NCBI GenBank assembly: GCA_037137775.1
Contig: JBAXJQ010000001.1
Location: forward strand, 32,316 to 96,315
Length of the DNA: 64,000 nt
Reading direction: 5' to 3'
Source: Candidatus Falkowbacteria bacterium
GTDB lineage: Bacteria > Patescibacteriota > Patescibacteriia > Patescibacteriales > GWE2-39-37
Shown: piece by piece, positions 3,413-63,996 of the stretch
Position numbering within the stretch: position 1 is the stretch's first letter
Layout of the letters: each line of letters opens with the position of its first letter
Notes under the pieces: model-generated
Database searches by the model: none
Seen by the model: the letters and a program-made list of their open reading frames with translations, nothing else
Told to the model about the DNA's origin: nothing
Translations under genes and position numbers: made by a program

Positions 3413-3751
3413 ATGGATATGGATGATATTACAATTAGAGAGGTAGAAAATATTATTTCAGAGTTTGCTACAAAAAAAGGCTTGGGAATTAATCCGGAAG
3501 AGATTAATACACCAGAAAAATTTGTATTACTGCATAGCGAAGTGAGTGAGGCCTATGAAGCCTATCGTCGAGGAAGAATGGACGGCAAGGATGGACTGTC
3601 GGAGGAATTAGCTGATATTGCTATTCGGTTATTTCAATTAGCTATTATCTTCAAAATTGATCTGGGTCAAGAGATTGTAAAAAAAATTGACTACAATCAA
3701 CATCGTGAGTGGCAGCACCCTAACGAAACTATAGTTAAAAATAATGTTTAA
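3413..3751 (+). CDS. MazG-like nucleoside triphosphate pyrophosphohydrolase, small all-alpha NTP-PPase
   Basis: 112 aa with EExxE-type motifs (LLHSEVSEAYEAYRRG, EELADIAIRL) typical of the MazG/dimeric dUTPase-like fold. Confidence 0.5.
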   Translation: MDMDDITIREVENIISEFATKKGLGINPEEINTPEKFVLLHSEVSEAYEAYRRGRMDGKDGLSEELADIAIRLFQLAIIFKIDLGQEIVKKIDYNQHREWQHPNETIVKNNV

Positions 3752-5610: not shown

Positions 5611-6168
5611 ATGAATCTGAAAACATTTTGGCAATATTTTTTTTATAGCTTTGCAATTTTATTAGTAACTGAAATTCAGCTGGGTGCTTTGCCGGCCATG
5701 CCAGGAGTCTTGGCCTATACAGATGTTGCGATAATTTTTTTATTAGTTGTCTTGGTGCTTTATGATGTCACCACGGCGTTTTATTTTGGTTTAATGCTGG
5801 GCATTATTTTTGATGTGTTGAATTTTTGGTCATTTGGTCAGGCGGTAATTGGTATTGAAGTCGTACTGGTGGTTTGTTATATATTATTAACTAAAGTTTT
5901 TACTAATCGATCGCTCTATTCATTTTTAGCCTTAACTTTGATCGCAACCGTGGTATATTGGTTGGCGATTCGAATAACTGATATAACCACAGGATTTGTA
6001 TTTTCGGCACCTAGTCATTTGTTTTTTAACCCCGTAGCATTACGTTTATTGGGCTGGAAAATTGGCTTAAATTTAATAACATCAGCCATAACTTTCCAGA
6101 TAGCAACATTTATCAGCCACAGCTTAAAACCTGTCTTTTTGATGAAAAGCAATTATGTTAACCGATAA
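5611..6168 (+). CDS. mreD: Rod shape-determining protein MreD, polytopic membrane protein
   Basis: 185-aa hydrophobic protein between mreC and pbp2. Synteny supports the call; sequence conservation is weak. Confidence 0.55.
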   Translation: MNLKTFWQYFFYSFAILLVTEIQLGALPAMPGVLAYTDVAIIFLLVVLVLYDVTTAFYFGLMLGIIFDVLNFWSFGQAVIGIEVVLVVCYILLTKVFTNRSLYSFLALTLIATVVYWLAIRITDITTGFVFSAPSHLFFNPVALRLLGWKIGLNLITSAITFQIATFISHSLKPVFLMKSNYVNR

Positions 6169-9014: not shown

Positions 9015-10454
9015 TTGTATATGATTAGGTACTTACGAAACAACAAGACTCGAACAATAATTTGGCTGGGATACTTTTTTTTACTAAGCATAGTCATTTT
9101 TAGAGGATTATTGCCTTTTGGTCAGGTGGTATATCGGTATAATTTTAATAATCCTGATTATTTTATTCGAAAATTAACACCGGCAGAACGGGTTTTGCCA
9201 GCCAACAAGCATGAACAGGGTATAATCGGTGAGCCGGTTTATTTTAGTGTGTACACACCTAGAACTTTTGATCAGGCGAAAATTACCTTAACATATAAAA
9301 TTATGGGTGAGGTGCCAGTTGTTGAGGTTGGGGTTTTAGCTCACCCCACTTTGACGCGGTATCGAACCGTGGCTATAGAGAATCAGCTTATTGATGACTT
9401 AGCAAAAAAATGGCAAGTGAAGTATGGCAACGGTTATACATTACTTGAGCAGGAAAATAAATATCAAAGCGTTGATGATTTTTTTAAATCGTTACCGCCA
9501 ACCAATCAAGTGGCAACCTATCGAGCGGAATTGCCTTTGAGGCAAGGTGAATATAATTTTACATTAGCCACTAGTTCGGTAAGAGTTGGTTTGCGTGGTT
9601 CGTATCAATTTTTCACCTATATTAATAGAGGGCAAATGCGGCTTAAATTGAATATTACTGATCGGAATCAAAACAACAAACCAGATCCTACTACTATTAC
9701 TGTTTATCGAGACGGCAAGTCAGTCTTTACCCGAATATTGCCAGATGATGGAGTGGTAATAGATACCTGGCAAGCTACTCCGGTGCGAACGTTTGACATT
9801 GAATCGCCAGTTTTAGAAAAAGGCATTTATCAAGTCGAGGTAGCTGCTAGTGATGATATTACTACTAATCAATTAATGATTAATTCAGGACAACTGGGTT
9901 TTTCTGGCTCTTTATGGCTGGCTGATACGACCAAACCACCAATTTTAGCCTGGACAGATGGTCAGGAGGTAAGTCTGCAAGTAACCGATCCAGCCAAAGA
10001 ACAAGTTGTTCTCATTGGACAAGAAAAATTAGTTGTTGATGACACTTTTAGATTGTTTCGCAAACAGACCAGCGCTACAGTCACCCCAATAAAACTAGAA
10101 AAAAATGATATTCGAATTGTGACAGACGGAGTAGTGGCGTTTAACCGTTCCCAATTATTTAACCCGAGAAGCATTCAGTTTGGCATTAATACGAAACTAG
10201 ACGAGCGAAAAATAAACTATGTGTTAACGGAATACTTACCTTCAGAAAATATTTCTTCCACAAGAGAAAAAAAGGCGACGTTGGATTTGCATGGCGCATA
10301 TCGTGAAGGGTCAAGATACGGATTTATGATCGCTTTGCCCGGGCTTAAAAATGATGCCAGTTCGACGGCAAATACTTTAGTGTTAAGCGATTTAAGTATA
10401 GAATTTAATGGCTCAACGTTATGGCAAAAAATTGCACGACTATGGCAAAAATAA
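9015..10454 (+). CDS. Hypothetical membrane-anchored protein: one N-terminal TM and a large beta-rich extracytoplasmic part
   Basis: 479-aa ORF with good coding statistics. I recognise no conserved motif in it. Confidence 0.5.
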   Translation: MYMIRYLRNNKTRTIIWLGYFFLLSIVIFRGLLPFGQVVYRYNFNNPDYFIRKLTPAERVLPANKHEQGIIGEPVYFSVYTPRTFDQAKITLTYKIMGEVPVVEVGVLAHPTLTRYRTVAIENQLIDDLAKKWQVKYGNGYTLLEQENKYQSVDDFFKSLPPTNQVATYRAELPLRQGEYNFTLATSSVRVGLRGSYQFFTYINRGQMRLKLNITDRNQNNKPDPTTITVYRDGKSVFTRILPDDGVVIDTWQATPVRTFDIESPVLEKGIYQVEVAASDDITTNQLMINSGQLGFSGSLWLADTTKPPILAWTDGQEVSLQVTDPAKEQVVLIGQEKLVVDDTFRLFRKQTSATVTPIKLEKNDIRIVTDGVVAFNRSQLFNPRSIQFGINTKLDERKINYVLTEYLPSENISSTREKKATLDLHGAYREGSRYGFMIALPGLKNDASSTANTLVLSDLSIEFNGSTLWQKIARLWQK

Positions 10455-10666: not shown

Positions 10667-11116
10667 ATGATAAACGAAGTCGTTATAAAACCGTTAAATC
10701 AATATAAGGATGATCGTGGTTGGCTAACAGAAATTTTCCGTAACGATGAGACTGAATTTCGACCGGAAATGGGTTATGTCAGCTTAACAAACCAGGGAGT
10801 GATTCGCGGTCCGCACGAGCACGTTGCTCAGGCGGATTGTTTTGTGTTCGTCGGTCCTGGCGAATTTGAACTTCATTTATGGGATCGACGTGATACAAGC
10901 AGTACGAATGGTGAGTATTTTAAAGTTACAGTCGGTGAGAATAATCCATCCATGGTAATTGTGCCCGCTGGCGTAGTGCATGGCTATAAATGTGTAAAGG
11001 GGCCAGCATATTCCATTAACTTGCCGGATAAATTATATAAGGGCGAAAAGAAACAGGAAGAGATAGATGAAATTCGTTGGGAAGAAAAAACGGATTCGCC
11101 ATATCATATCGAATAA
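10667..11116 (+). CDS. rfbC: dTDP-4-dehydrorhamnose 3,5-epimerase-like cupin (RmlC family)
   Basis: KDDRGWLTEIF and IRGPHEH...QADCFVFVGPGEFELHLWD are cupin motifs of RmlC. It is clustered with rmlB, rmlD and rmlA. Confidence 0.6.
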   Translation: MINEVVIKPLNQYKDDRGWLTEIFRNDETEFRPEMGYVSLTNQGVIRGPHEHVAQADCFVFVGPGEFELHLWDRRDTSSTNGEYFKVTVGENNPSMVIVPAGVVHGYKCVKGPAYSINLPDKLYKGEKKQEEIDEIRWEEKTDSPYHIE

Positions 11117-11125
11117 TTTTTTAAT

Positions 11126-11518
11126 ATGGACAATTGTATCTTTTGTAAAATCGTGGCTGGGGAAATACCATCTGCTAAGGTGTATGAAGATGATAAGGTG
11201 CTGGCATTTTTAGATATCAATCCGGTTAACTATGGCCATGCTTTAATAATCCCCAAAGCGCATCATCAAATGATGCCGGATGTACCGGATGATTTGCTGG
11301 CGTATTGCTTTGTGAAAGCAAAAGAGCTGATGGTAAAAATAAAAACTGCGCTCGGGGCTGATTTCGTTTCGGTGTCGGTGGCAGGCACGGAAATACCACA
11401 TTTTCATATTCACTTAATTCCGAGATACTATGATGACGGTTTGCATAGCTGGCCAATGAAGAAATACGAGGAGGGGAAGATAAATGAAATAGTTGATAAA
11501 ATAAAATTAAAAATATAG
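11126..11518 (+). CDS. HIT-family (histidine triad) nucleotide hydrolase/transferase
   Basis: The CxxC...HxHxHxx signature HFHIHLIPR and the IFCKIVAGEIP N-terminus are diagnostic. Confidence 0.8.
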   Translation: MDNCIFCKIVAGEIPSAKVYEDDKVLAFLDINPVNYGHALIIPKAHHQMMPDVPDDLLAYCFVKAKELMVKIKTALGADFVSVSVAGTEIPHFHIHLIPRYYDDGLHSWPMKKYEEGKINEIVDKIKLKI

Positions 11519-11520
11519 CC

Positions 11521-11793
11521 ATGAATAAATTTTTATCAATTGTTGTTTTGGAAAGTGTTTTTGTTGCTTTGTTTAATATACTTTTGGTTATCGGATATTT
11601 TTTTGCAGTGACTTGGATTTTTTCAAAATTAGCTCTTTTTATTGATAAAAAAAACATTAAAAATTTAATATTGAAAAAATTTACAAAAATTTTTATTGGA
11701 ATTTTGGTTTATACTATTGGTTTATTTATTTTTGGTAAAATTTTAAGCGAAGTCGGAAATTGGTTAGTTGCGCATAATTATATGGAAGGATAA
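11521..11793 (+). CDS. Hypothetical small membrane protein (90 aa, AT-rich)
   Basis: Two or three hydrophobic helices. It sits between the HIT gene and rmlB and has no homology support. Confidence 0.3.
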   Translation: MNKFLSIVVLESVFVALFNILLVIGYFFAVTWIFSKLALFIDKKNIKNLILKKFTKIFIGILVYTIGLFIFGKILSEVGNWLVAHNYMEG

Positions 11794-11797
11794 ATAT

Positions 11798-12763
11798 ATG
11801 AAATTACTCGTAACCGGTGGAGCAGGGTTTATTGGCTCCAATTTTATTCGTTATTGGCTGAGTAAGCATCCGAGCGATTCAATCGTAAATTTTGATTTGT
11901 TAACCTATGCCGGCAACTTGGATAGTTTGCGTGATATTGAAAATAATCCGAACTATAGTTTTGTAAGAGGCGATATTTGCGATGCCGGTGCTGTTCGCGA
12001 TGCAATAAAAGGTGTTGATATTATTGTGCATTTTGCGGCTGAGTCACATGTTGATCGGTCAATTGATAATGCGAGTCCGTTTATTCACACCAATGTCCTG
12101 GGAACGCAAGTTTTATTGGATGCCGCTAGGCATCATGGTAACACCCGCTTTCATCATGTTTCAACGGACGAGGTTTTTGGCTCCCTTGATATTGATGATC
12201 CTAAGTTTAACGAAAATACACCCTACGATCCACGTAGCCCATATAGCGCTTCTAAAGCGGCCTCAGATCATTTAGTGCGCGCCTATTGGCACACTCATAA
12301 GTTGCCAATAACTATTTCTAATTGTACAAATAATTATGGCCCGTACCAATATCCAGAGAAGCTAATTCCATTATTTATTACTAATTTATTTGACGGCAGA
12401 AAAGTACCGGTCTATGGCCGCGGTTCGAACATCCGAGATTGGATTTATGTTGATGATCACAACGCCGGCGTAGAGGCGATAATTTTGAAAGGTAAAATTG
12501 GGGAGACTTATTGCTTGGGTGGTGAAAATGAATTGAGCAATTTAGAAATTACTAATGATATCTTACAATTAATGCATCAGGGTGAAGAGATGATAGAATA
12601 TGTTGAAGACCGTAAAGGCCACGATTTGCGCTACGCCATGGATATTAGTAAGGCCAAACGCGAGTTGGAATGGTATCCAAAGATTGATTTTAAAACCGGA
12701 CTGGTAAAAACACTTAATTGGTATAAAGAAAATCAAGAATGGTGGCAAGCCTTAAAAAAATAG
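11798..12763 (+). CDS. rfbB: dTDP-glucose 4,6-dehydratase
   Basis: MKLLVTGGAGFIGSNF Rossmann N-terminus and the YSASKAASDH catalytic YxxxK. The start is taken at the ATG at 11798, preceded by GGAAGGA. Confidence 0.9.
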   Translation: MKLLVTGGAGFIGSNFIRYWLSKHPSDSIVNFDLLTYAGNLDSLRDIENNPNYSFVRGDICDAGAVRDAIKGVDIIVHFAAESHVDRSIDNASPFIHTNVLGTQVLLDAARHHGNTRFHHVSTDEVFGSLDIDDPKFNENTPYDPRSPYSASKAASDHLVRAYWHTHKLPITISNCTNNYGPYQYPEKLIPLFITNLFDGRKVPVYGRGSNIRDWIYVDDHNAGVEAIILKGKIGETYCLGGENELSNLEITNDILQLMHQGEEMIEYVEDRKGHDLRYAMDISKAKRELEWYPKIDFKTGLVKTLNWYKENQEWWQALKK

Positions 12764-12773
12764 ACACAACATC

Positions 12774-13637
12774 ATGAGAATAGTTATTCTGGGCGCGCAA
12801 GGCAATTTGGGTCAACAATTGGTGACAGTATTTAAATCCAATACGCTAAATGAAGTAATTGGCTGGGATAAAGGCGAGATCGATATTACGGATCAGGGCT
12901 TGGTGAAGAAAAAAATAGCAGATTTAAAACCGAATGTAATTATTAATGCGGTAGCATATAACGCGGTTGACCAAATGGAATCTGACGAAGGCTTTGAGCT
13001 GGCCAAAAAACTGAACGCGACTGCGGTTGGATATATAGCGCAAGCTGCGCTGGATAACAACGCGGTGATTGTGCACTATTCAACTGATTATGTCTTTGCT
13101 GGTGATAAAACAGAAGGCTACACGGAAAGCGACCAGCCGAGTCCTATTAGCCGCTATGGTGAAAGTAAGTTAATGGGTGAGCAGGAAATCATCCGCTTGA
13201 GTGGTCGTGGGTTAAAATGGTATTTGATTCGTACTTCAAAATTGTTTGGCCCGAAAGGCGAAAGCGAGGTGGCGAAACCAAGTTTTTTTGATGTAATGCG
13301 CAAATTAGGTGAAGAAAAAAAGGAATTGGAAATCGTGGATGAAGAAATGAGTTGTTTTACCTATACGCCAGATTTGGCCGCACAAACTAAGGAAATAGTG
13401 GAAGGGGATTACGGCTATGGAATTTACCATGTGGTTAATTCTAAACCAGTCACCTGGTTTCAAGCTGCTCAATTTATGTTTCGCCAGATTGGTAATAAAA
13501 TAAAATTAATTCCAGTGTCGAGCGAAAAATTTCCTCGACCAGCCAAGCGGCCAAAGTATTCGGTTTTAGTTTCAACTAAGTTGAAAAAGATGAGAAGTTA
13601 TCAAGACGCTTTAAAAGAATATTTGAGTATTAAATAA
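12774..13637 (+). CDS. rfbD: dTDP-4-dehydrorhamnose reductase
   Basis: MRIVILGAQGNLG N-terminus and YGESKLMGE (YxxxK) fit the RmlD family. It follows rmlB. Confidence 0.8.
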   Translation: MRIVILGAQGNLGQQLVTVFKSNTLNEVIGWDKGEIDITDQGLVKKKIADLKPNVIINAVAYNAVDQMESDEGFELAKKLNATAVGYIAQAALDNNAVIVHYSTDYVFAGDKTEGYTESDQPSPISRYGESKLMGEQEIIRLSGRGLKWYLIRTSKLFGPKGESEVAKPSFFDVMRKLGEEKKELEIVDEEMSCFTYTPDLAAQTKEIVEGDYGYGIYHVVNSKPVTWFQAAQFMFRQIGNKIKLIPVSSEKFPRPAKRPKYSVLVSTKLKKMRSYQDALKEYLSIK

Positions 13638-13641
13638 AATA

Positions 13642-14043
13642 ATGAAAAAACAATTTAAAATAACGTTACTTGTTTTAATACTTATTGTCATTTCAGTTTT
13701 ATATTATTTCATTATTGATTCAGAAACGTATATTGAATGCAAAGAAAAAACGTTTGATGCATTTTTATGTGATTCAAAAGGATTTATTGGTGATATTAGA
13801 ATATTTTCATGTCCTTGTGGCAACGGTAAGACTAAAATCGCTACCGATTTTATCTTATCTCCAGGTGCTTTTGACGCTTTAGATTTAGATCCTAAAACAT
13901 TAAAATACGACAAGTCAAATAAAATTTATTCAGATAAAAACGGAATCTATAAATATGAATGCACAGATGCATGCGCAGGGCGTCACCCTTGCGTGATTGA
14001 TCCATCGGTAACCTGTTCACTTAATATATTGAAAAAATATTAG
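13642..14043 (+). CDS. Cys-rich small membrane-anchored (signal-anchor) protein, paralogue 1
   Basis: The N-terminus MKKQFKIT with a TM is followed by a 9-Cys domain (SCPCGNGK, DKNGIYKYECTD). It is a paralogue of 14178..14633. The locus is AT-rich relative to its flanks. Confidence 0.5.
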   Translation: MKKQFKITLLVLILIVISVLYYFIIDSETYIECKEKTFDAFLCDSKGFIGDIRIFSCPCGNGKTKIATDFILSPGAFDALDLDPKTLKYDKSNKIYSDKNGIYKYECTDACAGRHPCVIDPSVTCSLNILKKY

Positions 14044-14054
14044 TAATTATCACT

Positions 14055-14144
14055 ATGAAATGAATAATCTTGTCTGGTGGATCAGGTACACGCTTGCCAT
14101 TATTAACAAATATAACTAACAAGCAACTTTTGCCATTACTATAA
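14055..14144 (+). pseudogene. Decayed duplicate of the rmlA 5' end (about 90 nt, stop at codon 3)
   Basis: atgaaaTGAataatcttgtctggtggatcaggtacacgcttgcca...aagcaacttttgcca aligns at roughly 75% identity with the true rmlA start at 14666 (atgaaaggcattatactctctggtggctcaggcacgcgtttgcgg...aagcaacttttaccg). Confidence 0.6.
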
Positions 14145-14177
14145 GACTTAAAACAATGTATTTGTATAAAATAAATT

Positions 14178-14633
14178 ATGTCAAAACAATTTAAAATTAC
14201 TATAATTATTTTAACAATATTTTTAGCTTTGTTTTTGATTTATTTTTTGTCATTATTGGGTGTTGTTGATTTTATTAAGTTAAAGGAAGAAATGTTTCCA
14301 ACTTATTATAGTGAGAAATTTGAAAATGAGGGCTGGTCATGTAAAACCGTCCGCGATATTGAAGAAAAAAATGGTAATATTGTAATTATTGCTGAATGTG
14401 ATTGTGGTAAATTATTATTTAATTGTAAGATTGCAGGATATTTTGAGGATTCTGAATTTAGAGACTTTAAAAATGTAGAAGCAAAATCTTTGCAGTATAA
14501 TAATACCTTGGAAATGTATGAGGATAAAAATGGTTTTTATAATTTTGAATGTATGGGCGATAATGTTGGCAGTCGTTTAACTGACGGAAAAACTGAGCAT
14601 ATTTGTTCTCTTGAATTAGTTAAGAATAAATAA
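14178..14633 (+). CDS. Cys-rich small membrane-anchored protein, paralogue 2
   Basis: The N-terminus MSKQFKIT with a TM is followed by a Cys-rich domain (ECDCGK, DKNGFYNFEC) that can be aligned with the 13642..14043 product. Confidence 0.5.
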   Translation: MSKQFKITIIILTIFLALFLIYFLSLLGVVDFIKLKEEMFPTYYSEKFENEGWSCKTVRDIEEKNGNIVIIAECDCGKLLFNCKIAGYFEDSEFRDFKNVEAKSLQYNNTLEMYEDKNGFYNFECMGDNVGSRLTDGKTEHICSLELVKNK

Positions 14634-14665
14634 GTGATTGAATTAACTAGATTAATTATAATTTT

Positions 14666-15391
14666 ATGAAAGGCATTATACTCTCTGGTGGCTCAGGCAC
14701 GCGTTTGCGGCCACTGACTAAAATTACGAGTAAGCAACTTTTACCGGTATACAACAAGCCGATGATTTATTATCCGCTGAATACTTTGATTACCGCGGGC
14801 ATTAAAGAGATTTTAATAATTGTAGCACCAGAGCGGGCAGGGGATTATTTGAATCTGCTTGGATCCGGTAAACAGTTTGGGGTGAAGTTTACCTATGAAA
14901 TTCAAGATAAACCGGCAGGCTTGCCCGAGGCGTTTATCATTGGTGAGAGTTTTATTGGCAAAGATAATGTGACTATGATTTTAGGGGATAATATTTTTGA
15001 AGATAATTTTGCCAAAGAGATTAAAAAATTCAAGAAGGGTGGAAAGGTGTTTGCTAAGCATGTGCCGGATCCAGAGCGGTTTGGCGTGGTAAAGTTTGAT
15101 GCTAATCTGCAAGCTGTACAAATTGAAGAAAAGCCAGAACAGTGGATTAGTGATTATGCACTAACCGGATTGTATGTTTATGACAATCGCGTTGTTAAAG
15201 TAGCGAAAGAATGCCAACCAAGTGCTCGAGGCGAGCTGGAGATTACTGATTTACATCGATGGTATATGGACAAAGGCGTGCTTGAAGTTGCTATGGTAAA
15301 TGGAGAATGGCTTGATGCTGGTACCTTTGAGAGCTTATTAAAGGCGCAAAATTTTGCCAAGGATAAATTGGTAGACAAAATGGTAATTTAA
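14666..15391 (+). CDS. rfbA: Glucose-1-phosphate thymidylyltransferase (short form)
   Basis: MKGIILSGGSGTRLRPLTKITSKQLLPVYNKPMIYYPL is the canonical RmlA N-terminus. Confidence 0.85.
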   Translation: MKGIILSGGSGTRLRPLTKITSKQLLPVYNKPMIYYPLNTLITAGIKEILIIVAPERAGDYLNLLGSGKQFGVKFTYEIQDKPAGLPEAFIIGESFIGKDNVTMILGDNIFEDNFAKEIKKFKKGGKVFAKHVPDPERFGVVKFDANLQAVQIEEKPEQWISDYALTGLYVYDNRVVKVAKECQPSARGELEITDLHRWYMDKGVLEVAMVNGEWLDAGTFESLLKAQNFAKDKLVDKMVI

Positions 15392-16341: not shown

Positions 16342-17205
16342 ATGACCGAGTTGTCAATCATTATTGTCTCGTGGAATGTTAAGGAAAAATTACGGGAAAA
16401 TCTAACTGCACTATATCAAAGTGTTGGTGACTTAGGCTTGGAGGTATTTGTGGTTGATAACCATTCACATGACGGTACGGTTGCCATGATTCAACAAAGT
16501 TTTCCTCGAGTACGGCTAATCCCAAATAATCACAATCTCGGGTTTGCTAAGGCAAATAATCAAGCGCTTCGCCAAGCAGAAGGCAAGTATGTATTGCTGC
16601 TTAACCCTGATATGAAAGTGCTGCCTGACACTTTGCAAAATATGGTTAATTGGATGGATGCTAATCCTCAGGCCAGCCTGGCCGGTTGCCACTTAGTTGA
16701 TCAAAATTTAAATACTATTTTACACGTACGGCAATTTCCTACGCTTAATGATCAATTAGCCATTGTCTTGAAATTGCCTCATTTATTCAAACATATTTTA
16801 AAAAATTATCTGCAAGAAAATTTTGACTATACTAAGGCGGCAAAGGTAGATTCGGTTAGAGGCGGCTTTTTTATGTTACGACAAAAAACGATTGAAAAAA
16901 TTGGGTTGCTTGATGAGCAATATTTTATCTGGTTTGAAGAGGTGGATTATTGCAAGCGGGTGTACGCTCAAGGAGGCGAGGTGTGGTATACGCCTACGGC
17001 AACTTGCATTGATTATGTAGGACAGAGCTTTAAGCAAGTAAAAAACCGAACGACGCAAGCGTATTTTAAATCGAGTATGTTAAAATATTTTTTAAAGTGG
17101 CAGCCTAAATGGCAATATTATGTTTTGTTACTTGCTTGGCCATTCGGCCAAACATTGGCGTGGGTGGGTGGTTTGTTTCATTTTGCTCGAAAGGCTAAAA
17201 CATAA
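16342..17205 (+). CDS. Family 2 glycosyltransferase
   Basis: [28 protein letters not shown] and the motifs around [31 protein letters not shown] are all GT2 features. Confidence 0.75.
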
Positions 17206-17206
17206 T

Positions 17207-18061
17207 ATGATGAAAAAATTTATTTTATTTTTTGGTATACTTTTATTTACTGCTGGTTGCGGTAAGATTGAGCCTGCTCAAAAAACCATATTAACCCCAG
17301 GTCTGGATGGTATTAAGAAGGCTAGAGCGATAAACACTTCAAGCAGAGAACGAGCCGAAGAAATGAATCAATTGCTCGATGTAAAAGCGGCCACCGAAAT
17401 TAAAATGGCTTCACCGGTCGCCAAAACTTATCTGGTAACCCGAGTGATTGATGGTGATACAATTGATGTAAGCATAAATCAAAAAAATGTCCGAGTTAGG
17501 CTGATTGGCATTAACACGCCAGAGACTGTTGACCCGCGTCGACCTGTAGAATGTTTTGGCCAAGAGGCTTCAAAAAAAGCCAAAGAATTACTTTTAAACA
17601 AAATGGTTAGTTTAGAGATGGATATTTCTCAGTCGGATAAGGATAAATATGGCAGATTACTACGCTATGTAAGAGTCGGCGATGTGTTTGTTAACCTTGA
17701 AATGATTACCCAGGGCTTTGCATATGAGTATACCTACATTACACCTTATAAATATCAAAAATCATTTAAACTCGCTCAAGCTGAGGCGCGAACTGCGAAG
17801 CGCGGTCTGTGGGCGGATGGAATTTGTGGTCAAAAAAACAGTACAACCAAAATCATTTCGGTAACCAGTACCACATCATCAATAAGCAAGACGTGTCTCA
17901 TTAAAGGCAATATCAGTAGCAAGAAAGAAAAAATTTATCACATACCTAATTGTGTCTATTATAAAAAAACCGTTATTAATCCAACAGCAGGTGAAGAATG
18001 GTTTTGCAGCGAGGCCGAGGCTAAAGCAGCCGGATTTCGCAAGGCGTTAAATTGCACGTAA
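17207..18061 (+). CDS. Secreted lipoprotein thermonuclease (SNase/micrococcal-nuclease-like) with a C-terminal Cys-containing domain
   Basis: Lipobox LLFTAGCG, then SNase motifs VIDGDTIDV...[10 protein letters not shown]...RYVRV. The C-terminal module is [23 protein letters not shown]...[16 protein letters not shown]. Confidence 0.7.
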
Positions 18062-32204: not shown

Positions 32205-32837
32205 ATGTGTAGCGAATTTAAAACATCCCTTTTTGAAGAACCTTTAATCATCGACTACACGGCGTTGCTTAAGGAGGCAAGAGATTTTTCGCCAGAGTTA
32301 AAAAATGCCATAGAAGGTGTGATTAATGAAAAGATTGGCAATATTGCCAGGCGAAAAAACATTATTATATCATCGAGCTGGTTATACGAAATTGAAGATA
32401 GGCTTAATCATGATAATCCAGCAACAATAAATTCTGATTTACGTAAAATTATTTTAAAGCTGCTAATAAAAATTACAAACAGTAACTTGGGCGTAAGTTC
32501 AGACAATAAAGAATTAAAACTATTACTTCATAATTTAACTTTGGAAGATAATAATGCTGATCTAATAGAAAAAGGAGCACACCCGGCCTTGGTCGGACAA
32601 TACGGCGATGGGCACCAAGAAATTAAGGAGATTCTTGGCACAAATCCTTACATAAAAAATCATGGTAGAGGTAAAGAAGATGATATTGGCCATATTTATC
32701 GAACTAAGGGAAGTAGACGAGTGAATGGTAATTCTTCAAAACAGGTAATAACCGATCCAAATCAAGAATGGCTAAAAACACATGAGCGGGAAAAAGAGAA
32801 GGCAGAAGATGAATTAAGAAAACTTCGTTTTGGATAA
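32205..32837 (+). CDS. Hypothetical cytosolic protein (210 aa), AT-rich; its 3' end overlaps the htrA start
   Basis: Long ORF with a possible co-transcription overlap with htrA. I recognise no motif in it. Confidence 0.4.
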   Translation: MCSEFKTSLFEEPLIIDYTALLKEARDFSPELKNAIEGVINEKIGNIARRKNIIISSSWLYEIEDRLNHDNPATINSDLRKIILKLLIKITNSNLGVSSDNKELKLLLHNLTLEDNNADLIEKGAHPALVGQYGDGHQEIKEILGTNPYIKNHGRGKEDDIGHIYRTKGSRRVNGNSSKQVITDPNQEWLKTHEREKEKAEDELRKLRFG

Positions 32838-49863: not shown

Positions 49864-50268
49864 ATGAAAAAATTTAAGATTATTAGTTTGCCGATTTTAT
49901 TGTTAGCAGTAGTTTTTAGCATAGGCGGCTATTATTGGGGTGCGCTCAGTCAGCGTTCTAAAGTTTATATTATCACAAGAAATGATCAAGTATCGACGAC
50001 TACGCCTACAAATCAGGTTGCGACAACTACCAACGTAAAGCCAGTTACAAGTGTTTCAGGCGTGGTTGCACCAGTTGTAACTAAACCGGCTCCCGTTCCA
50101 ACCGCTCCAAGTATAGTCAAGCCAAGTGCAACAAAACCAAACATCCCTGCCGTAAACCAGCCGGCCACAGTGAAGCCAACACCGACACCAACCCCTGCAC
50201 CAGTTGTTATGCCAGTTCCAGTCCCGACACCAACTCCTGCACCAGCACCTACTACAAAGGTTTCTTAG
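49864..50268 (+). CDS. Pro/Thr-rich small membrane-anchored protein
   Basis: Signal-anchor MKKFKIISLPILLLAVVFSIGG followed by a PT-rich, low-complexity extracellular region. Confidence 0.45.
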   Translation: MKKFKIISLPILLLAVVFSIGGYYWGALSQRSKVYIITRNDQVSTTTPTNQVATTTNVKPVTSVSGVVAPVVTKPAPVPTAPSIVKPSATKPNIPAVNQPATVKPTPTPTPAPVVMPVPVPTPTPAPAPTTKVS

Positions 50269-50272
50269 TCGT

Positions 50273-51220
50273 ATGGCAATGTTATGGAAAAAATTTGAGG
50301 CATTAGGCACAGAAATTATTATTACCGCCGACTTACGACCTGAACAGAAATATTTACTTGATAAGGCGCAAGCCAGTGTAGTGGAATTTGAGCAACGATT
50401 TAGTCGCTTTATTCCAGATAGCGAGCTTAACATGTTGAATAATTTTGCAGGCGGAGAATATCGCCTTAGCGCCCAATTTGCGGATTTACTTAAACACGCA
50501 CAAACGTTTTATCACGAAACCAACGGTTTATTCGATCCAGTAATAATTGATGTCTTAGAGGGAATTGGTTATGACCGAAATTTTTCCGATATTAATTCAC
50601 ATAATCTAACTAAACAACAGGTAGAAATTAAATGGCAGACAGCTAGTTCGATCTATGAACATCGTCCAAAAATGGATGAGTTAAAGATGAATGGGGAAGT
50701 AGCACTGGTGCCACCTGGTTTTAGATTAGATTTAGGTGGATTGGGTAAGGGCTACGTTGTAGATTTAATTGCCCGTGAAGTGTTTGCCGATATTAAAAAT
50801 TTTTGGATATCAGCTGGTGGCGATTTACTTGCCAATGGTAATGATGAACAGAAAAATGGCTGGCAGATTGGCGTGCAAAATCCATTAAAGCCAGAATCCG
50901 AAAGTTTTTACATCAACACCTTGGGTAAGCAGCTTGGCATTGCTACTTCTGGGGTAATTAAACGCAAGGGCGAGGCCGGTGGACTTGCATGGCACCATAT
51001 CATTGATCCACACACTGGTCGTCCGGCTATAGTTGATATCTTGTCCGTTAGTGTAGTCGCTCCATCGGCAGAGACAGCTGATGTATATGCTAAAACAATA
51101 TTATTGCTTGGCTCAAAGGCTGGAGTGGAATTTGCGGATCAACACGAGGGCGTGGGTTGTATTATATTTTTAACAGACGGTGCTCCGATTTTTTCACGGG
51201 GCATGGTCGCATATTTGTAA
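50273..51220 (+). CDS. apbE: FAD:protein FMN transferase (ApbE family)
   Basis: DLGGLGKGYVVD and WHHIIDPHTGRP are hallmark ApbE motifs. No obvious signal peptide is present. Confidence 0.8.
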   Translation: MAMLWKKFEALGTEIIITADLRPEQKYLLDKAQASVVEFEQRFSRFIPDSELNMLNNFAGGEYRLSAQFADLLKHAQTFYHETNGLFDPVIIDVLEGIGYDRNFSDINSHNLTKQQVEIKWQTASSIYEHRPKMDELKMNGEVALVPPGFRLDLGGLGKGYVVDLIAREVFADIKNFWISAGGDLLANGNDEQKNGWQIGVQNPLKPESESFYINTLGKQLGIATSGVIKRKGEAGGLAWHHIIDPHTGRPAIVDILSVSVVAPSAETADVYAKTILLLGSKAGVEFADQHEGVGCIIFLTDGAPIFSRGMVAYL

Positions 51221-51225
51221 ATTAT

Positions 51226-51942
51226 ATGGAACGAATTATAAAAATTATTTTGATTTTGGCAGTAGTAACCACTATTGGGTATGTCTTGGGGGTAGGCACA
51301 AATACGAGTGAAGTACGAGTTAAAGATGCACAAGGAAATGTTCAAGTAATAAAGCCAGCCGCGACAAGCGAACTTGCAGCGCTTAATCCAGGATATGTTT
51401 CACAGCTTCCGTGGTTTATTTCTCGTTCATCTGCTTTAGCTGCGTACATTTTGTTATTTGCCATCGTAATTTGGGGCATGGGCATGACCGTTGGTTGGAC
51501 ATACAAAATTTTTGATCCAGCACGAGCCTGGCAACTACATCAAGACATGAGTCTTTCTTTTGCGGTTTTAGTAGTAGTACACGCCTTTTCATTGTTATTC
51601 GATCATTTTATAAATTTTACCATTCTGGATATTTTGATTCCGTTTTTTTCCAAATTTAACACCATCTTTTTAAGCTTGGGTATAATTGGATTCTATTTAC
51701 TTGTTGCCATTGTGGTAATTTCAGTATTCTTGCGACTTAAGATGCCACGTTTGTGGCGCCTGAATCACTATTCAACCTTTTTGTTATTTATTTTTGCTAC
51801 TTTACATGGGTTTAACATGGGTACGGATTCGTCTACGATGATTATGAAAATTGTCTACCCAGTTGCTGCTATTGTGTTTTTATTAGTTGCCACATATCGC
51901 TTTATTATTTATCCTCTGAGTGTAAAAAAGAAAATCGGCTAA
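51226..51942 (+). CDS. Ferric-reductase-like transmembrane (FRD) domain protein with bis-heme His pairs (MsrQ/NOX TM-domain-like)
   Basis: Six TM helices carry H-x13-H (HQDMSLSFAVLVVVH) and H-x12-H (HYSTFLLFIFATLH) pairs, as in FRD/NOX helices 3 and 5. No FAD/NAD domain is attached. Confidence 0.7.
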   Translation: MERIIKIILILAVVTTIGYVLGVGTNTSEVRVKDAQGNVQVIKPAATSELAALNPGYVSQLPWFISRSSALAAYILLFAIVIWGMGMTVGWTYKIFDPARAWQLHQDMSLSFAVLVVVHAFSLLFDHFINFTILDILIPFFSKFNTIFLSLGIIGFYLLVAIVVISVFLRLKMPRLWRLNHYSTFLLFIFATLHGFNMGTDSSTMIMKIVYPVAAIVFLLVATYRFIIYPLSVKKKIG

Positions 51943-60393: not shown

Positions 60394-61653
60394 ATGAGTC
60401 GATTATCCATGCGAACAATTTTTTGGTCGCTAAAACTTTTAGCCGGAGGTATTTTTTTATCAGCGATTATCATTGCTTTTTTTGCGTTTGATATTAAACT
60501 CACCCTAGGGCAGGATCAGCCAGAGTCTGCTGAAGTGAAAAAAATTAGCGATCAAATAAAAGCCAAAAAAGATCGAGCCGACGAGCTTTCCAGACGGCAA
60601 GAAGAATATGCCAAAGCTCTAGAACAAAAGCAGAGTGAAAAGCTTGATTTGACCAATCAGATGGGTATTTTAGATAATCGGGTTGCCTCACTAGAATTAG
60701 ATATTATGCGCACCGGCCTAGAAATTGATCAAGTAACATTGGAAATTAAAAAGCTATCCTTAGAAATTAGCGATAAAGAGGATAAGTTGGTACAAGAAAA
60801 GGAACATATTGCTACTATTTTACGTGCACTACATCAGCAGGATCGAGTTAACACTTTACAAGTATTATTATTAAATGATTCTCTGTCAGATTTTTTAAAT
60901 CAGGTAAAATATTTGGAAGATGTTAATAGTGAGTTAGGCGACAGTGTTCGCGAATTGGAAAAATTACGTGATGAGTTGTTATTGCAAAAAGCTAATCAGG
61001 AAAAAAAGAATACAGATTTAGCAATTTTAAAGAAAGATCTGGATGACAAAAAAACAGCATTATTAGCTGAAAAGGAAAGCAAGCAATTTTTAATAGTTCA
61101 AACTGAGTCTTCGGAAATAGAGTTTCAACGACTAATTCGATTAGCCAAGCAAGAACAGGCGCAAGCCGCTTCCGATGTAGTATCGCTTGAAAAGGCGATG
61201 CGTGAAAAACTGGAGCAGCAAAAGAATAAAAAATTAGTTTTAAATCCCAACGGCTTAATCTGGCCAGTAACTAAAAACACGGTTACAGCTTATTTTCATG
61301 ATCCAGATTATCCATTTCGCTATGTCTTTGAGCATCCAGCCATTGATATTCGGGCCAAGCAGGGAACTGTCATACGAGCAGCCGCCTCTGGTTACGTTGC
61401 CCGGGCTAAAGATGCAGGACAGGGGTATAGTTATATTATGATTGTCCATGGCGACGGTCTCTCTACCGTTTATGGCCATGTTTCTAAGATTATGGTTGAT
61501 GAAGAGCAATATGTAGTTCAAGGTCAGCAAATTGGCCTTTCTGGTGGTACCCCAGGCACTCCTGGCGCAGGCAACATGACCTCTGGCCCCCATCTTCATT
61601 TCGAGGTACGACTAAATGGTATTCCGGTTAATCCTTTGGAATATTTGAAATAA
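60394..61653 (+). CDS. EnvC-like coiled-coil M23 metallopeptidase (peptidoglycan DD-endopeptidase)
   Basis: N-terminal TM, a long coiled-coil and a C-terminal M23 domain with the HxxxD (HPAIDIRA) and HLHFE (HxH) zinc ligands. Confidence 0.8.
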   Translation: MSRLSMRTIFWSLKLLAGGIFLSAIIIAFFAFDIKLTLGQDQPESAEVKKISDQIKAKKDRADELSRRQEEYAKALEQKQSEKLDLTNQMGILDNRVASLELDIMRTGLEIDQVTLEIKKLSLEISDKEDKLVQEKEHIATILRALHQQDRVNTLQVLLLNDSLSDFLNQVKYLEDVNSELGDSVRELEKLRDELLLQKANQEKKNTDLAILKKDLDDKKTALLAEKESKQFLIVQTESSEIEFQRLIRLAKQEQAQAASDVVSLEKAMREKLEQQKNKKLVLNPNGLIWPVTKNTVTAYFHDPDYPFRYVFEHPAIDIRAKQGTVIRAAASGYVARAKDAGQGYSYIMIVHGDGLSTVYGHVSKIMVDEEQYVVQGQQIGLSGGTPGTPGAGNMTSGPHLHFEVRLNGIPVNPLEYLK

Positions 61654-61666
61654 TTTTAGCCTCTTT

Positions 61667-62461
61667 ATGAAAAAAATAGTAATTTTAATGTGCTTAATTT
61701 TTGTTTTGCCTTTATATTCCTTGGCAGCTGATTTTACCAAGGAAGCAGAGGCTGTAGTTAAAAGCGGTAAAGACGTAAATCAACTTTTGAAAAATACAAA
61801 AAGTAAAATTGATGTAAAGGGCCAAAAATCTACAATGGAATTTGACACTGAACCCTTAGTTAAGGGGTTCAAAGTTTCAACAGCGCAAAAGTATTCAATT
61901 AATAATTTTATTCTTTATGGCACGAATTCAACAAAAAAGTTTCGGCAAGTTTTCAGAAAAGAGATGATTAAAAATTTTATATACAAAAATAAAAAACTTC
62001 CGGAATCAGCTAAGGATTGGGAAAAAATATTGTCTAGAAATAACTCTGCTAATAGTTGCTTGCCAATGCCAAATAAAAGTATAATTCCCAATGGTTATGA
62101 TTTTAAAAAACAAGAAGATCAAACATTATTTACAGCCTTTGGCGAATGCTCAAATATATTTGTTTTAGGGAGTGGTAATTATTTCTCTCCAACATCAACC
62201 TCAATTTCTGTTTATAACTCTCCACTTGAATCTTCACAAATCATTCAAAAGTTAAAAAATGATACAAATTGGAAACTCATTGAACAAAAAACAAATAATA
62301 AAATCTTAATTTCAGTTTTTAGATCAAATTATGATACAAATAAAACCAGCTATCAACTAGTAGCAAAATATTATAACGGTAGTATAATTTTTATTTCTTT
62401 TGATAATGCAAAGAAGGACGACATGCTTTTAATGATGCAAAAGTATGTTAAATCAAAATAA
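61667..62461 (+). CDS. Hypothetical secreted protein (signal peptide), AT-rich
   Basis: MKKIVILMCLIFVLPLYSLAADF signal peptide. It is Lys/Asn-rich with no recognised motif. Composition is shifted relative to the upstream genes. Confidence 0.45.
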   Translation: MKKIVILMCLIFVLPLYSLAADFTKEAEAVVKSGKDVNQLLKNTKSKIDVKGQKSTMEFDTEPLVKGFKVSTAQKYSINNFILYGTNSTKKFRQVFRKEMIKNFIYKNKKLPESAKDWEKILSRNNSANSCLPMPNKSIIPNGYDFKKQEDQTLFTAFGECSNIFVLGSGNYFSPTSTSISVYNSPLESSQIIQKLKNDTNWKLIEQKTNNKILISVFRSNYDTNKTSYQLVAKYYNGSIIFISFDNAKKDDMLLMMQKYVKSK

Positions 62462-62474
62462 TAAAATTAATTTT

Positions 62475-63101
62475 ATGAAAAAATTAATAAATTTAGTTTT
62501 AATTATATCGACAGTATTTTTTCTGCAAACAGGAATTTTACAAGCAGCAAGCACTTCAACTATTCCAAAAAAATTAAAAATCTCAACTGCTAGTCTTAAT
62601 AATTATCAAGCTCAAATACCCTTAGATAAAATAGTTGCTAAAATAAAAATTAGCACTGAAAAACAAAAATTAATTGTAAGTGACAAGTGGTGTGGTAATC
62701 TAAATTATATGTCTGATTGTCAAATTGTGTATCGTTTAATAAGTGACACAAAAGGAAAATCCAATGCTTTTATGGTTGGGTTAAACGCTGAAACGGTTGC
62801 AACTACCTCGACAGATAAAAATACAATCAAAAAATTAATCAGTTCAAAAGTCAAAAAGAGCTTTTTAGCGGGTAAAAAACAAGATTGTATTAAAAATAAA
62901 TGCACAAACCTTAGTATAAAAGGCGCAGACTCTGCTTATAAGATATCAACTGGTACAATAAAGGCATTAAAGGGGGGTATTGTCGTTACAATAGTTGATG
63001 AATCAAATAAATTTAGTAAATTATCAAAAGAGATAGCCCCTCAAATTTTAACTCAAGTTGGCAGCGGTTTGGATTACCAAAAATTTACCCCAAAATTTTA
63101 A
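62475..63101 (+). CDS. Hypothetical secreted protein (signal peptide), AT-rich
   Basis: MKKLINLVLIISTVFFLQTGILQAAS signal peptide with no recognised motif. The start is taken at the ATG at 62475. Confidence 0.45.
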   Translation: MKKLINLVLIISTVFFLQTGILQAASTSTIPKKLKISTASLNNYQAQIPLDKIVAKIKISTEKQKLIVSDKWCGNLNYMSDCQIVYRLISDTKGKSNAFMVGLNAETVATTSTDKNTIKKLISSKVKKSFLAGKKQDCIKNKCTNLSIKGADSAYKISTGTIKALKGGIVVTIVDESNKFSKLSKEIAPQILTQVGSGLDYQKFTPKF

Positions 63102-63120
63102 AATGTAATATTGTTTAATT

Positions 63121-63150
63121 AAAAACTAACCATTATAATGGTTAGTTTTT
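63121..63150. terminator. Bidirectional hairpin terminator between the secreted-protein gene (+) and the recombinase gene (-)
   Basis: AAAAACTAACC-attataa-TGGTTAGTTTTT. It overlaps the recombinase stop codon. Confidence 0.5.
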
Positions 63151-63996
63151 AATTTGTTTACCACCGTGAAATTTCTGGTGAATGTCGCTTAGTTGTTTGT
63201 TGGTTACGTGGGTATAGATTTGCGTGGTGGCAATATTAGAGTGACCTAAAAATTCTTGCACTAGACGTAAATCTACGCCCTGAGTAAGTAAATCCGTGGC
63301 ATAGGAGTGCCGCAGGGTATGCGGGGAAGTCATAATCGGCAAGCCAGCCAGCTTGGTGTATTTTTTAACAATGTCTTCGATTGCTCGCACGGTTAGGCGT
63401 CGTGTAGTGCCGTCACCACGCCCTAGAGAGTAGTTTATAAATAGGGCAGGATCCATATCTTTTCTAGCCGCTATATAGGCACGTAGCGCCTGAATAGCAC
63501 GTTCAGAAAAATAGACAGTCCGCACTTTGCCGCCTTTACCTGAAACGCTGATTTCTAAAAAATTTGTTAGTGGCTTGATACGAAGTTGATCACAATCAAG
63601 ACGGGTTAATTCAGCTACGCGTAAGCCGGTAGAAAATAAGCTCTCCAGGATTGCCCGGTCGCGTAAGCCGGCCAGGGTAGAGAGGTCTGGGCCTTGAAAT
63701 AATTTTTCAATCTGATCTAGTTTTAAAAAGGTAACTTGATGCTGCTGTTTTTCCCTGGCCAGCTTAATTTTATCAGGTGGTAGGGAAGTGATATCTTTTT
63801 CAATAAAATAACTTAAAAGACTTCGTAGAGCTATAAGGTAATAGTTTTGAGTACTTTTTTTAAGACCTGGCTGATCATGGCCATGTTGTTGGCGCGATAA
63901 GTATAGCCGGTAGCGCCAAACAATTTCATCGGTAAGGCTTTTTGGTTGTAATTCAGTCAGGTTATTTTCTTCCAACCAATGAAAAAACTTTTGCAA
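63142..63996 (-). CDS. xerC: Tyrosine recombinase (XerC/XerD-like integrase); the N-terminus may continue beyond the window edge
   Basis: The C-terminal catalytic motifs R...HTLRHSYATDLL...LGHSNIATTQIYTHV carry the Tyr. An N-terminal core-binding domain is also present. Confidence 0.8.
   Translation of the reverse strand: MQKFFHWLEENNLTELQPKSLTDEIVWRYRLYLSRQQHGHDQPGLKKSTQNYYLIALRSLLSYFIEKDITSLPPDKIKLAREKQQHQVTFLKLDQIEKLFQGPDLSTLAGLRDRAILESLFSTGLRVAELTRLDCDQLRIKPLTNFLEISVSGKGGKVRTVYFSERAIQALRAYIAARKDMDPALFINYSLGRGDGTTRRLTVRAIEDIVKKYTKLAGLPIMTSPHTLRHSYATDLLTQGVDLRLVQEFLGHSNIATTQIYTHVTNKQLSDIHQKFHGGKQIKN

Follow-up and report, generated by a model that had tools for sequence, protein, structure and literature searches.

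How did two small genes for cysteine-rich membrane proteins come to lie between rmlD and rmlA of a rhamnose operon, and what might their products do there? The locus was met in a stretch of 64,000 nucleotides from a Candidatus Falkowbacteria bacterium (contig JBAXJQ010000001.1), which as a whole is called the window here. The two genes, mini1 and mini2, make up an AT-rich array that is specific to one lineage and lies within the dTDP-rhamnose operon of a single Candidatus Falkowbacteria population. Our account is that the array would have arisen from two cassettes that had diverged well before they were joined, and that its products would be displayed at the cell surface; taken as a whole, covering identity, origin and display, the evidence leans slightly in favour of this account. 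It is carried by the synonymous saturation between the two mini-genes and by a truncated copy of the rmlA start, left between them, that differs from the resident gene in the manner of a functional orthologue. The features needed for the argument are the following.

12774-13637, + strand: rmlD, dTDP-4-dehydrorhamnose reductase, the upstream flank (Pfam RmlD_sub_bind, E 3.5e-71)
13642-14043, + strand: mini1, an orphan gene of 133 amino acids (aa), an open reading frame (ORF) paralogous to mini2
14055-14141, + strand: rmlA' fossil, the first 29 codons of rmlA (blastn, tblastn)
14142-14177, + strand: rmlD' relic, decayed rmlD tail plus spacer, directly upstream of mini2 (local alignment)
14178-14633, + strand: mini2, an orphan paralog of 151 aa, an ORF paralogous to mini1
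14666-15391, + strand: resident, intact rmlA-like gene for a sugar-phosphate nucleotidyltransferase of 241 aa, a short form (Pfam NTP_transferase, E 3.2e-60)

The mini-gene pair and its coding status

An earlier sequence-only reading of the window had proposed two paralogous small genes between rmlD and rmlA, and two ORFs of 133 and 151 aa on the + strand are indeed present, with all elements in place after small corrections of their coordinates. The products align past the N-terminal anchor: BLASTP gave 33% identity over 80 aa (residues 54-131 of mini1 against 71-149 of mini2, E 7e-9), and a Smith-Waterman alignment of the ectodomains alone, with the anchors removed, scored 88 compared with 28.7 +/- 5.1 in 2000 shuffles (z 11.6). 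The motifs M-x-KQFKIT, CxCG, DKNG-Y--EC and C-SL are common to both proteins, and four Cys are aligned (57/74, 59/76, 107/125 and 125/143). With an alignment outside the transmembrane (TM) anchor and conserved Cys, mini1 and mini2 are one protein family, present as distantly related copies. The genes are similar at the DNA level too, over their 5' part and the sequence just ahead of it, where 13611-13717 and 14148-14258 are 72% identical over 112 nt (E 8e-12).

At the composition of the mini-genes (27% GC) the probability of a stop is 0.09 per codon, and the chance of an open frame is then ~4e-6 for 133 codons and ~7e-7 for 151 codons. Identity between the two genes is 52, 64 and 45% at codon positions 1, 2 and 3, the second position being the most conserved and the third the least. 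The Nei-Gojobori method gave proportions of nonsynonymous and synonymous differences of 0.42 (pN) and 0.63 (pS), corresponding to a dN of 0.62 and a saturated dS of ~1.4, and the same codon is used at 25 of 43 identical residues, compared with 26.3 expected under synonymous randomisation. Synonymous sites between mini1 and mini2 are thus saturated. Judged from these patterns, both frames appear to have stayed open and constrained over a long divergence, and they behave as protein-coding genes. Protein-level constraint is rarely demonstrable for orphan genes, and can be shown for this one because two anciently split copies exist.

No fold can be assigned to the mini family, which is an orphan. 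Nothing but self matches came out of word-indexed searches of 5.8e9 clusters, and an exhaustive search of 1.84e9 protein representatives with a hidden Markov model profile of both copies returned only the two copies. Pfam and NCBIfam gave no match at E <= 0.1-1, the best matches in PHROGs had E >= 0.16, PADLOC gave only a match of 13 bits (E 0.01), and the best sequence-profile match in the PDB, to an unrelated phosphorylase, had E 0.05. The mini-proteins had no tblastn match in 50,697 phage records, and viral and metagenome contigs scanned with degenerate patterns, one of them a 45-bit DKNG-Y--EC pattern, yielded no relatives.

A search of species-representative genomes with RmlD as the probe gave 16 loci. 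Ten of them, from Falkowbacteria, Parcubacteria or Patescibacteria, are syntenic, their RmlD being 47-59% identical. Each of the ten has rmlA behind rmlD after a spacer of 20-140 nt (12-46% GC), and none of these ten spacers holds an ORF or any mini-protein similarity, which sets the copy number there at zero. Nine contigs, which come from at least six samples or assemblies, carry the mini locus itself, always with two copies. As had been noted from the letters alone, the block is more AT-rich than the rml genes around it, with 26-33% GC against 38-46% in the flanks; GC at third codon positions (GC3) is 0.21 in mini1 and 0.20 in mini2 against 0.36-0.39 in the rml genes. This composition is atypical, and the block is absent from every relative examined.

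Some of the contigs have peculiarities of their own. In the 2.8-kb contig L001 the last ~30 nt (2771-2799; window ~14547 onward) match neither the window nor the other contigs at all, which is probably an assembly-end artefact and yields a false 134-aa "partial" mini2 variant (P0001). L001 and L002 (JBAXKN010000057.1) come from the same strain, with 99.9% identical DNA, and are labelled both Candidatus Falkowbacteria and Candidatus Saccharibacteria, and the syntenic Falkowbacteria-like rml loci L004, L006 and L007 are from metagenome-assembled genomes labelled "uncultured Gammaproteobacteria". These label conflicts are probably binning or labelling errors.

Flank scraps and the timing of the join

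The rmlA fossil between the mini-genes starts with an ATG at 14055; homology to rmlA runs to 14141 (codon ~29-30) and is followed by a TAA at 14142-14144, so that the translation reads MK*IILSGGSGTRLPLLTNITNKQLLPLL*, asterisks being stops. Compared with the resident rmlA, the DNA is 68% identical ungapped over 87 nt, and blastn with the whole window gave 71% over 93 nt (E 2.9e-7); 22 of 29 aa are identical to the resident RmlA (tblastn E 1e-6). The degraded copy of the rmlA 5' end that had been reported behind the first mini-gene is therefore genuine, the identity given for it, about 75%, being slightly generous beside the measured 68-71%. The fossil has both the nucleotide-binding motif G-G-x-G-T-R-L-x-P-L-T and the significant similarity by which an RmlA N-terminus is recognised; lacking a complete open catalytic domain (~240-290 aa), it is a gene fragment and cannot function. 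In a comparison of 13 rmlA heads of related loci the resident rmlA came closest to it, and a database search with a 40-aa fossil chimera brought up nothing but short fragments of RmlA, all of them no closer to it than the resident gene is.

The only stop within the fossil is a TGA (14061-14063) at codon 3, a conserved Gly position that is GGC in the resident rmlA. In genetic code 25, used by Gracilibacteria and Absconditabacteria, TGA encodes Gly. A donor with code 25 is unsupported: the resident rmlA is the closest relative of the fossil, in-frame TGA codons are absent from mini1, and one substitution is enough to turn GGA into TGA.

The 36 nt behind the fossil (14142-14177) align with the 3' tail of rmlD and the adjoining spacer at 13602-13638 (score 29, shuffle p 0.0025). 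An extension of the fossil past codon 30 into the same 36 nt was rejected, as they have no similarity to rmlA codons 30-55 (shuffle p 0.98). With the rmlA fossil and the rmlD relic, the locus therefore consists of two units of the same build, rmlD tail - mini - rmlA head:

13602-14141, + strand: repeat unit 1, rmlD tail - mini1 - rmlA head, 540 nt, its left end being the last ~36 nt of rmlD (13602-13637)
14142-14753, + strand: repeat unit 2, rmlD' relic - mini2 - rmlA head, running into the intact rmlA, 612 nt, its right end being the first ~88 nt of rmlA

The earlier proposal of a repeated block made of the mini-gene and the rmlA start is confirmed in this form, with the rmlD-tail relic as an additional part that had been missed. 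The units are joined between rmlA codon ~30 and the rmlD tail; any microhomology there (TAT / CAAG) would extend over no more than a few bases.

When did this join take place, relative to the divergence of the copies? The fossil and the resident rmlA are 79, 86 and 38% identical at codon positions 1, 2 and 3. In the ungapped alignment, differences fall on 18 of 29 third positions and on 10 of 58 first and second positions (Fisher p 6e-5), and an alignment with a gap of one codon gave 17/28 and 7/56 (p 1.5e-5). With 61-62% of third and 12-17% of first and second positions different, the ratio of the two distances is ~6.7. The excess holds separately at A/T sites (p 0.001) and at G/C sites (p 0.007), and AT-biased decay therefore fails to explain it. 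Neutral decay from birth was rejected, with p from 4e-4 (ungapped) to 2e-5 (gapped), in a test that allowed third positions twice the distance of first and second positions. The same pattern is seen between functional orthologues, the resident rmlA head and that of the relative L003 being 79, 90 and 31% identical at the three positions. It thus appears from the codon positions that the fossil was part of a working rmlA for most of the time over which it diverged, and that the truncating join is comparatively recent. This pattern, together with the synonymous saturation of the mini-genes, suggests that the cassettes split long before rmlA was truncated, and neither observation supports the earlier view that the block was duplicated in place with the fossil decaying ever since. 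In this way the scraps of the flanking genes place the rearrangement in time with respect to the divergence of the mini-genes.

In the account that we favour, two rmlD - mini - rmlA cassettes, both with a functional rmlA still attached, would have diverged until their synonymous sites were saturated. An illegitimate join would then have linked them head to tail, from rmlA codon ~30 in one cassette to the final ~36 nt of rmlD in the other, leaving the rmlA' and rmlD' scraps. Two histories could lead to this state. A diverged allelic cassette may have been imported from a related lineage by homology-facilitated illegitimate recombination, with a homologous crossover in rmlD or upstream of it at one end and, at the other, an illegitimate join between codon ~30 of the donor rmlA and the rmlD tail of the resident. 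Homology-facilitated illegitimate recombination is a documented route (PMC3240628), and it has been proposed to build orphan-gene arrays that keep scraps of conserved flanks (PMC5361080). Alternatively, an old and larger tandem duplication may have produced two complete mini - rmlA units, both of which were kept until most of the first rmlA was deleted. Import is slightly preferred, because one event suffices and no long-term upkeep of a redundant rmlA is required. Of the marks expected of homology-facilitated illegitimate recombination, an illegitimate junction is present between rmlA codon ~30 and the rmlD tail, and the inserted rmlA head carries the divergence pattern of a functional orthologue; a homologous crossover was not located.

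The history least compatible with the data is a single step, i.e. a simple in-place tandem duplication of the DNA from the rmlD tail to rmlA codon ~30, with the rmlA head dead from the start. Such a step predicts exactly the unit structure that is seen, with the rmlA head joined directly to the rmlD tail, and an independent in-place duplication of the same style is found 2 kb upstream in a 90-aa membrane ORF, here called TM90. A fragment dead from birth should, however, change equally at all codon positions, or at most ~2x as much at the third, which is far from the ratio of ~6.7, and a neutral fragment as old as the saturated mini-genes should be unrecognisable, yet 22 of the 29 RmlA residues are kept. 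We consider the single-step duplication unlikely.

The mini-proteins and their setting

A signal-anchor followed by a Cys-rich ectodomain with shared CxCG and DKNG-Y--EC motifs had been described for both products, and both copies bear this out. mini1 has the K-rich N-terminus MKKQFKITLL, a TM helix at residues 7-25 (maximum over 19 residues on the Kyte-Doolittle scale 3.0) and an ectodomain with 8 Cys, and mini2 has the N-terminus MSKQFKITII, a TM helix at residues 9-27 (maximum 2.97) and an ectodomain with 6 Cys; a second strongly hydrophobic segment is absent from both by the same measure. The predicted topology is a single TM signal-anchor, N-in/C-out by the positive-inside rule, with an ectodomain of ~105-125 aa. 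The ectodomains are probably disulfide-held, extracytoplasmic and beta-rich; disulfides are probable because four Cys are aligned and the Cys totals (8 and 6) are even. AlphaFold2 models, for which the two-sequence alignment was the input, show a long N-terminal helix followed by several beta-strands, and are too poor to pair the Cys.

Several known classes were considered and set aside. A type IV pilin or pseudopilin is not indicated, as position -1 is not Gly, position +5 is not Glu and Pfam N_methyl gave no match at E <= 0.1; PilN/PilO-like rows in the Foldseek result are weak and were not taken as evidence. Nor is a bacterial lipoprotein indicated, since the proteins have no lipobox and the first Cys, at residue 33 in mini1 and 55 in mini2, lies beyond the TM segment. 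The marks of a bacteriocin, one of the ideas voiced earlier, are likewise missing: the N-terminus is a 19-residue TM anchor without a GG motif, the neighbours are only rml, HIT, GT2 and nuclease genes, and no gene for a transporter or immunity partner was found near the pair. For the earlier functional suggestions as a group (bacteriocin-like, adhesin-like, effector) the analysis yielded evidence neither in favour nor in opposition.

The ATG of mini1 lies 4 nt past the rmlD stop and rmlA starts 32 nt past mini2, everything being on the operon strand, and no terminator-like site was found on the + strand within the mini block. Because of this strand, this spacing and this lack of a terminator between the genes, the mini-genes would probably be co-transcribed with the rhamnose genes; their proteins would be inserted through Sec, and the cell surface would bear two divergent ectodomains beside the rhamnose-containing glycan. 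The rhamnose pathway can do without the pair, since relatives with the same operon lack it, and the ectodomain diverges fast (dN ~0.66). Our best guess, a tentative one that we would put well short of probable, is that the pair acts as a lineage-specific surface or interface protein in attachment or in modulation of surface recognition, and not as an enzyme. If expressed, the mini-proteins would be candidate surface components specific to one Falkowbacteria lineage.

Several observations weigh against the account of pre-diverged cassettes and surface display. No single-cassette genome or donor was found in the databases and contigs searched, and the locus-bearing contigs represent one near-clonal population, with 2 single-nucleotide polymorphisms in 2.8 kb; for these reasons import and duplication with later deletion are not separable. 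The codon-position argument rests on only 28-29 codons. The independent in-place tandem duplication in TM90 (11521-11793) also captured the tail of the gene upstream, so that local duplication is active in the operon, which favours the in-genome history over import. As to the proteins, the mean predicted local distance difference test scores (pLDDT) of the AlphaFold2 models are 53 and 52, only the TM helix being confident, Foldseek of the models against the PDB gave nothing below E 0.96 (TM-score <= 0.28), and the window holds no Dsb or VKOR gene.

Among other roles, the pair might be an accessory of glycan assembly, e.g. a chain-length, anchoring or scaffold factor for the rhamnosyl-glycan machinery, in keeping with its place inside the rml/GT2 operon and with apparent coupling of transcription and translation. 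The ten syntenic relatives without the pair, however, keep the same rml and GT2 genes, no match to Wzz, GtrA, a flippase or a polysaccharide family was found, and an ectodomain that diverges with a dN of 0.66 is atypical of machinery components, which makes this role rather unlikely. That the mini ORFs are non-functional, as chance or decaying frames in an AT-rich inserted spacer, would agree with the lack of homologues anywhere searched, the very low GC3 and the missing Shine-Dalgarno motifs. It is nonetheless very improbable in view of the chance of the open frames (~4e-6 and ~7e-7), both of which remained open through synonymous saturation, and of the constraint seen in second positions (64% against 45% for the third), in pN < pS, and in four Cys, a TM helix and three motifs that were kept. 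Least probable of all is an array of orphan immunity-type or otherwise protective small membrane proteins stacked by cassette displacement: tandem diverged small genes split by flank scraps do parallel orphan immunity arrays (PMC5361080), but no toxin, effector, secretion-system or transporter gene lies nearby, the PADLOC match is at 13 bits (E 0.01), and large extracytoplasmic Cys-rich domains are atypical of immunity proteins with a cytoplasmic or membrane site of action.

It is tempting to go further and to regard the AT-rich rmlD-rmlA spacer as a polymorphic site for surface-protein cassettes of a kind not seen before in Patescibacteria, occupied by a young, possibly de novo-born family of disulfide-rich ectodomains whose alleles differ between lineages and are exchanged and stacked by illegitimate recombination. 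We hold this to be quite improbable; if true, the site would be an analogue of the toxin-immunity orphan-module arrays, serving cell-surface identity in an episymbiont, and TM90 would be a second, younger case of small membrane genes that are born and grow in operon spacers.

The operon as a whole runs in the order rmlC-like gene, HIT gene, rmlB, rmlD, the array, rmlA and GT2 genes, TM90 lying between the HIT gene and rmlB. Its remaining upstream members are:

10667-11116, + strand: rmlC-like gene
11126-11518, + strand: HIT gene
11521-11793, + strand: TM90, the 90-aa membrane ORF
11798-12763, + strand: rmlB

Downstream of rmlA several genes for GT2 glycosyltransferases follow on the + strand. 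The resident rmlA scored 306 bits against the NCBIfam model TIGR01207 for rmlA, under its 360-bit equivalog cut-off. No mobile-element gene flanks the mini block, and promoter-like sites within it are unremarkable for AT-rich DNA. The sole Rfam match, a manA RNA at 14604-14775 across the mini2-rmlA junction, scored 18.9 bits (E 0.048), below the gathering score of 55.2, and was treated as chance. The mini-genes have no Shine-Dalgarno motif, which is uninformative, because just 3 of the 47 genes of the window have a Shine-Dalgarno-like motif upstream; translation initiation in this window evidently does not rely on this sequence. The stop codons used in the window are TAA (43), TAG (10) and TGA (3).

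TM90 has 22% GC and 17% GC3 and is absent from the syntenic relatives, where the gap between HIT and rmlB measures 18-50 nt. Its internal tandem duplication pairs 11492-11588, which comprises the last ~27 nt of HIT and the start of the ORF, with 11641-11736 (score 50, reached in 0 of 2000 shuffles). The second unit was fused in frame, with loss of a TAG and a change of ATG to TTG, so that a TM ORF of ~40 codons was doubled. In the relatives, the HIT gene is found twice beside the rml genes in two loci, in tandem in L003 (306-1130) and flanking rmlC in L004 (1523-2967), which marks the neighbourhood of the operon as a place where small duplications tend to occur, in more than one lineage.

The window belongs to the core chromosome and encodes SecDF, ProRS, MreBC, PBP2, DnaK/DnaJ/GrpE, MurJ, LepA, RecJ and the RNase P RNA; proteins identical to its own have been deposited for a Candidatus Falkowbacteria metagenome-assembled genome. 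Its largest other AT-rich island (61626-63200, 28% GC) holds two adjacent genes for hypothetical proteins of 264 and 218 aa, which have N-terminal signal peptides and are rich in Lys, Asn and Ser. Other AT-rich islands of the window likewise encode hypothetical proteins with signal peptides, and in this genome AT-rich islands and genes for secreted or surface orphan proteins seem to go together. Among the glycosyltransferase genes, 17120-18061 encodes a 313-aa protein with a lipoprotein-type signal, a staphylococcal-nuclease domain (E 1.6e-23) and a Cys-containing C-terminal extension of ~80 aa, and a start at its first ATG would make its frame share 86 nt with the end of the GT2 gene before it. 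ORFs of 112-479 aa with no Pfam match (E <= 1e-3 or 1e-5) lie at 9015-10454, 3413-3751, 5611-6168, 32205-32837, 49864-50268 and 51157-51942.

Comparison with known systems

The closest parallels in architecture are the orphan immunity-gene arrays of the Vibrio cholerae type VI secretion system (T6SS) and the orphan Rhs/CdiA-CT modules, where diverged tandem small genes likewise lie in a conserved operon with scraps of the flanks at the joins (PMC5361080), and where, as we propose for the mini locus, the cassettes diverged before they were joined. The mini locus differs from these arrays in having no evident effector or toxin partner, secretion system or immunity function and only two cassettes, and its proteins are unrelated to theirs in sequence. 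The donor lineage is unseen in our case, and the mechanism is deduced from 29 codons and not from a comparison of strains.

An ordinary tandem segmental duplication would share the junction of an rmlA head with an rmlD tail, the possible microhomology of at most a few bases and the repeat units of 540 and 612 nt. What sets the mini locus apart is that its truncated rmlA shows a signature of purifying selection, and the join is therefore younger than the split of the two units.

Type IV pilin-like proteins, with a class III signal peptide and a hydrophobic N-terminal helix, are common in the Patescibacteria (Candidate Phyla Radiation, CPR). The mini-proteins resemble them in being small, with a short charged N-terminus and ~20 hydrophobic residues ahead of a beta-rich domain of a kind that is sometimes disulfide-bonded, but in place of the prepilin motif G|F-T/S-L-x-E they read K-Q-F-K-I-T-L.

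Finally, CPR genomes contain lineage-specific, AT-rich ORFans that encode small secreted or membrane proteins. The mini-genes resemble these in being short and AT-rich, in having a hydrophobic N-terminus and no homologues, and in being absent from related genomes; they differ in that the family shows protein-level constraint and sits in a conserved biosynthetic operon, not in a variable region. The pair thus amounts to a new orphan family together with a neat rearrangement scar, left by an event of an ordinary kind, and next to the systems above it offers a small and clean example of lineage-specific membrane mini-genes settling and multiplying inside a conserved operon of a reduced-genome bacterium.

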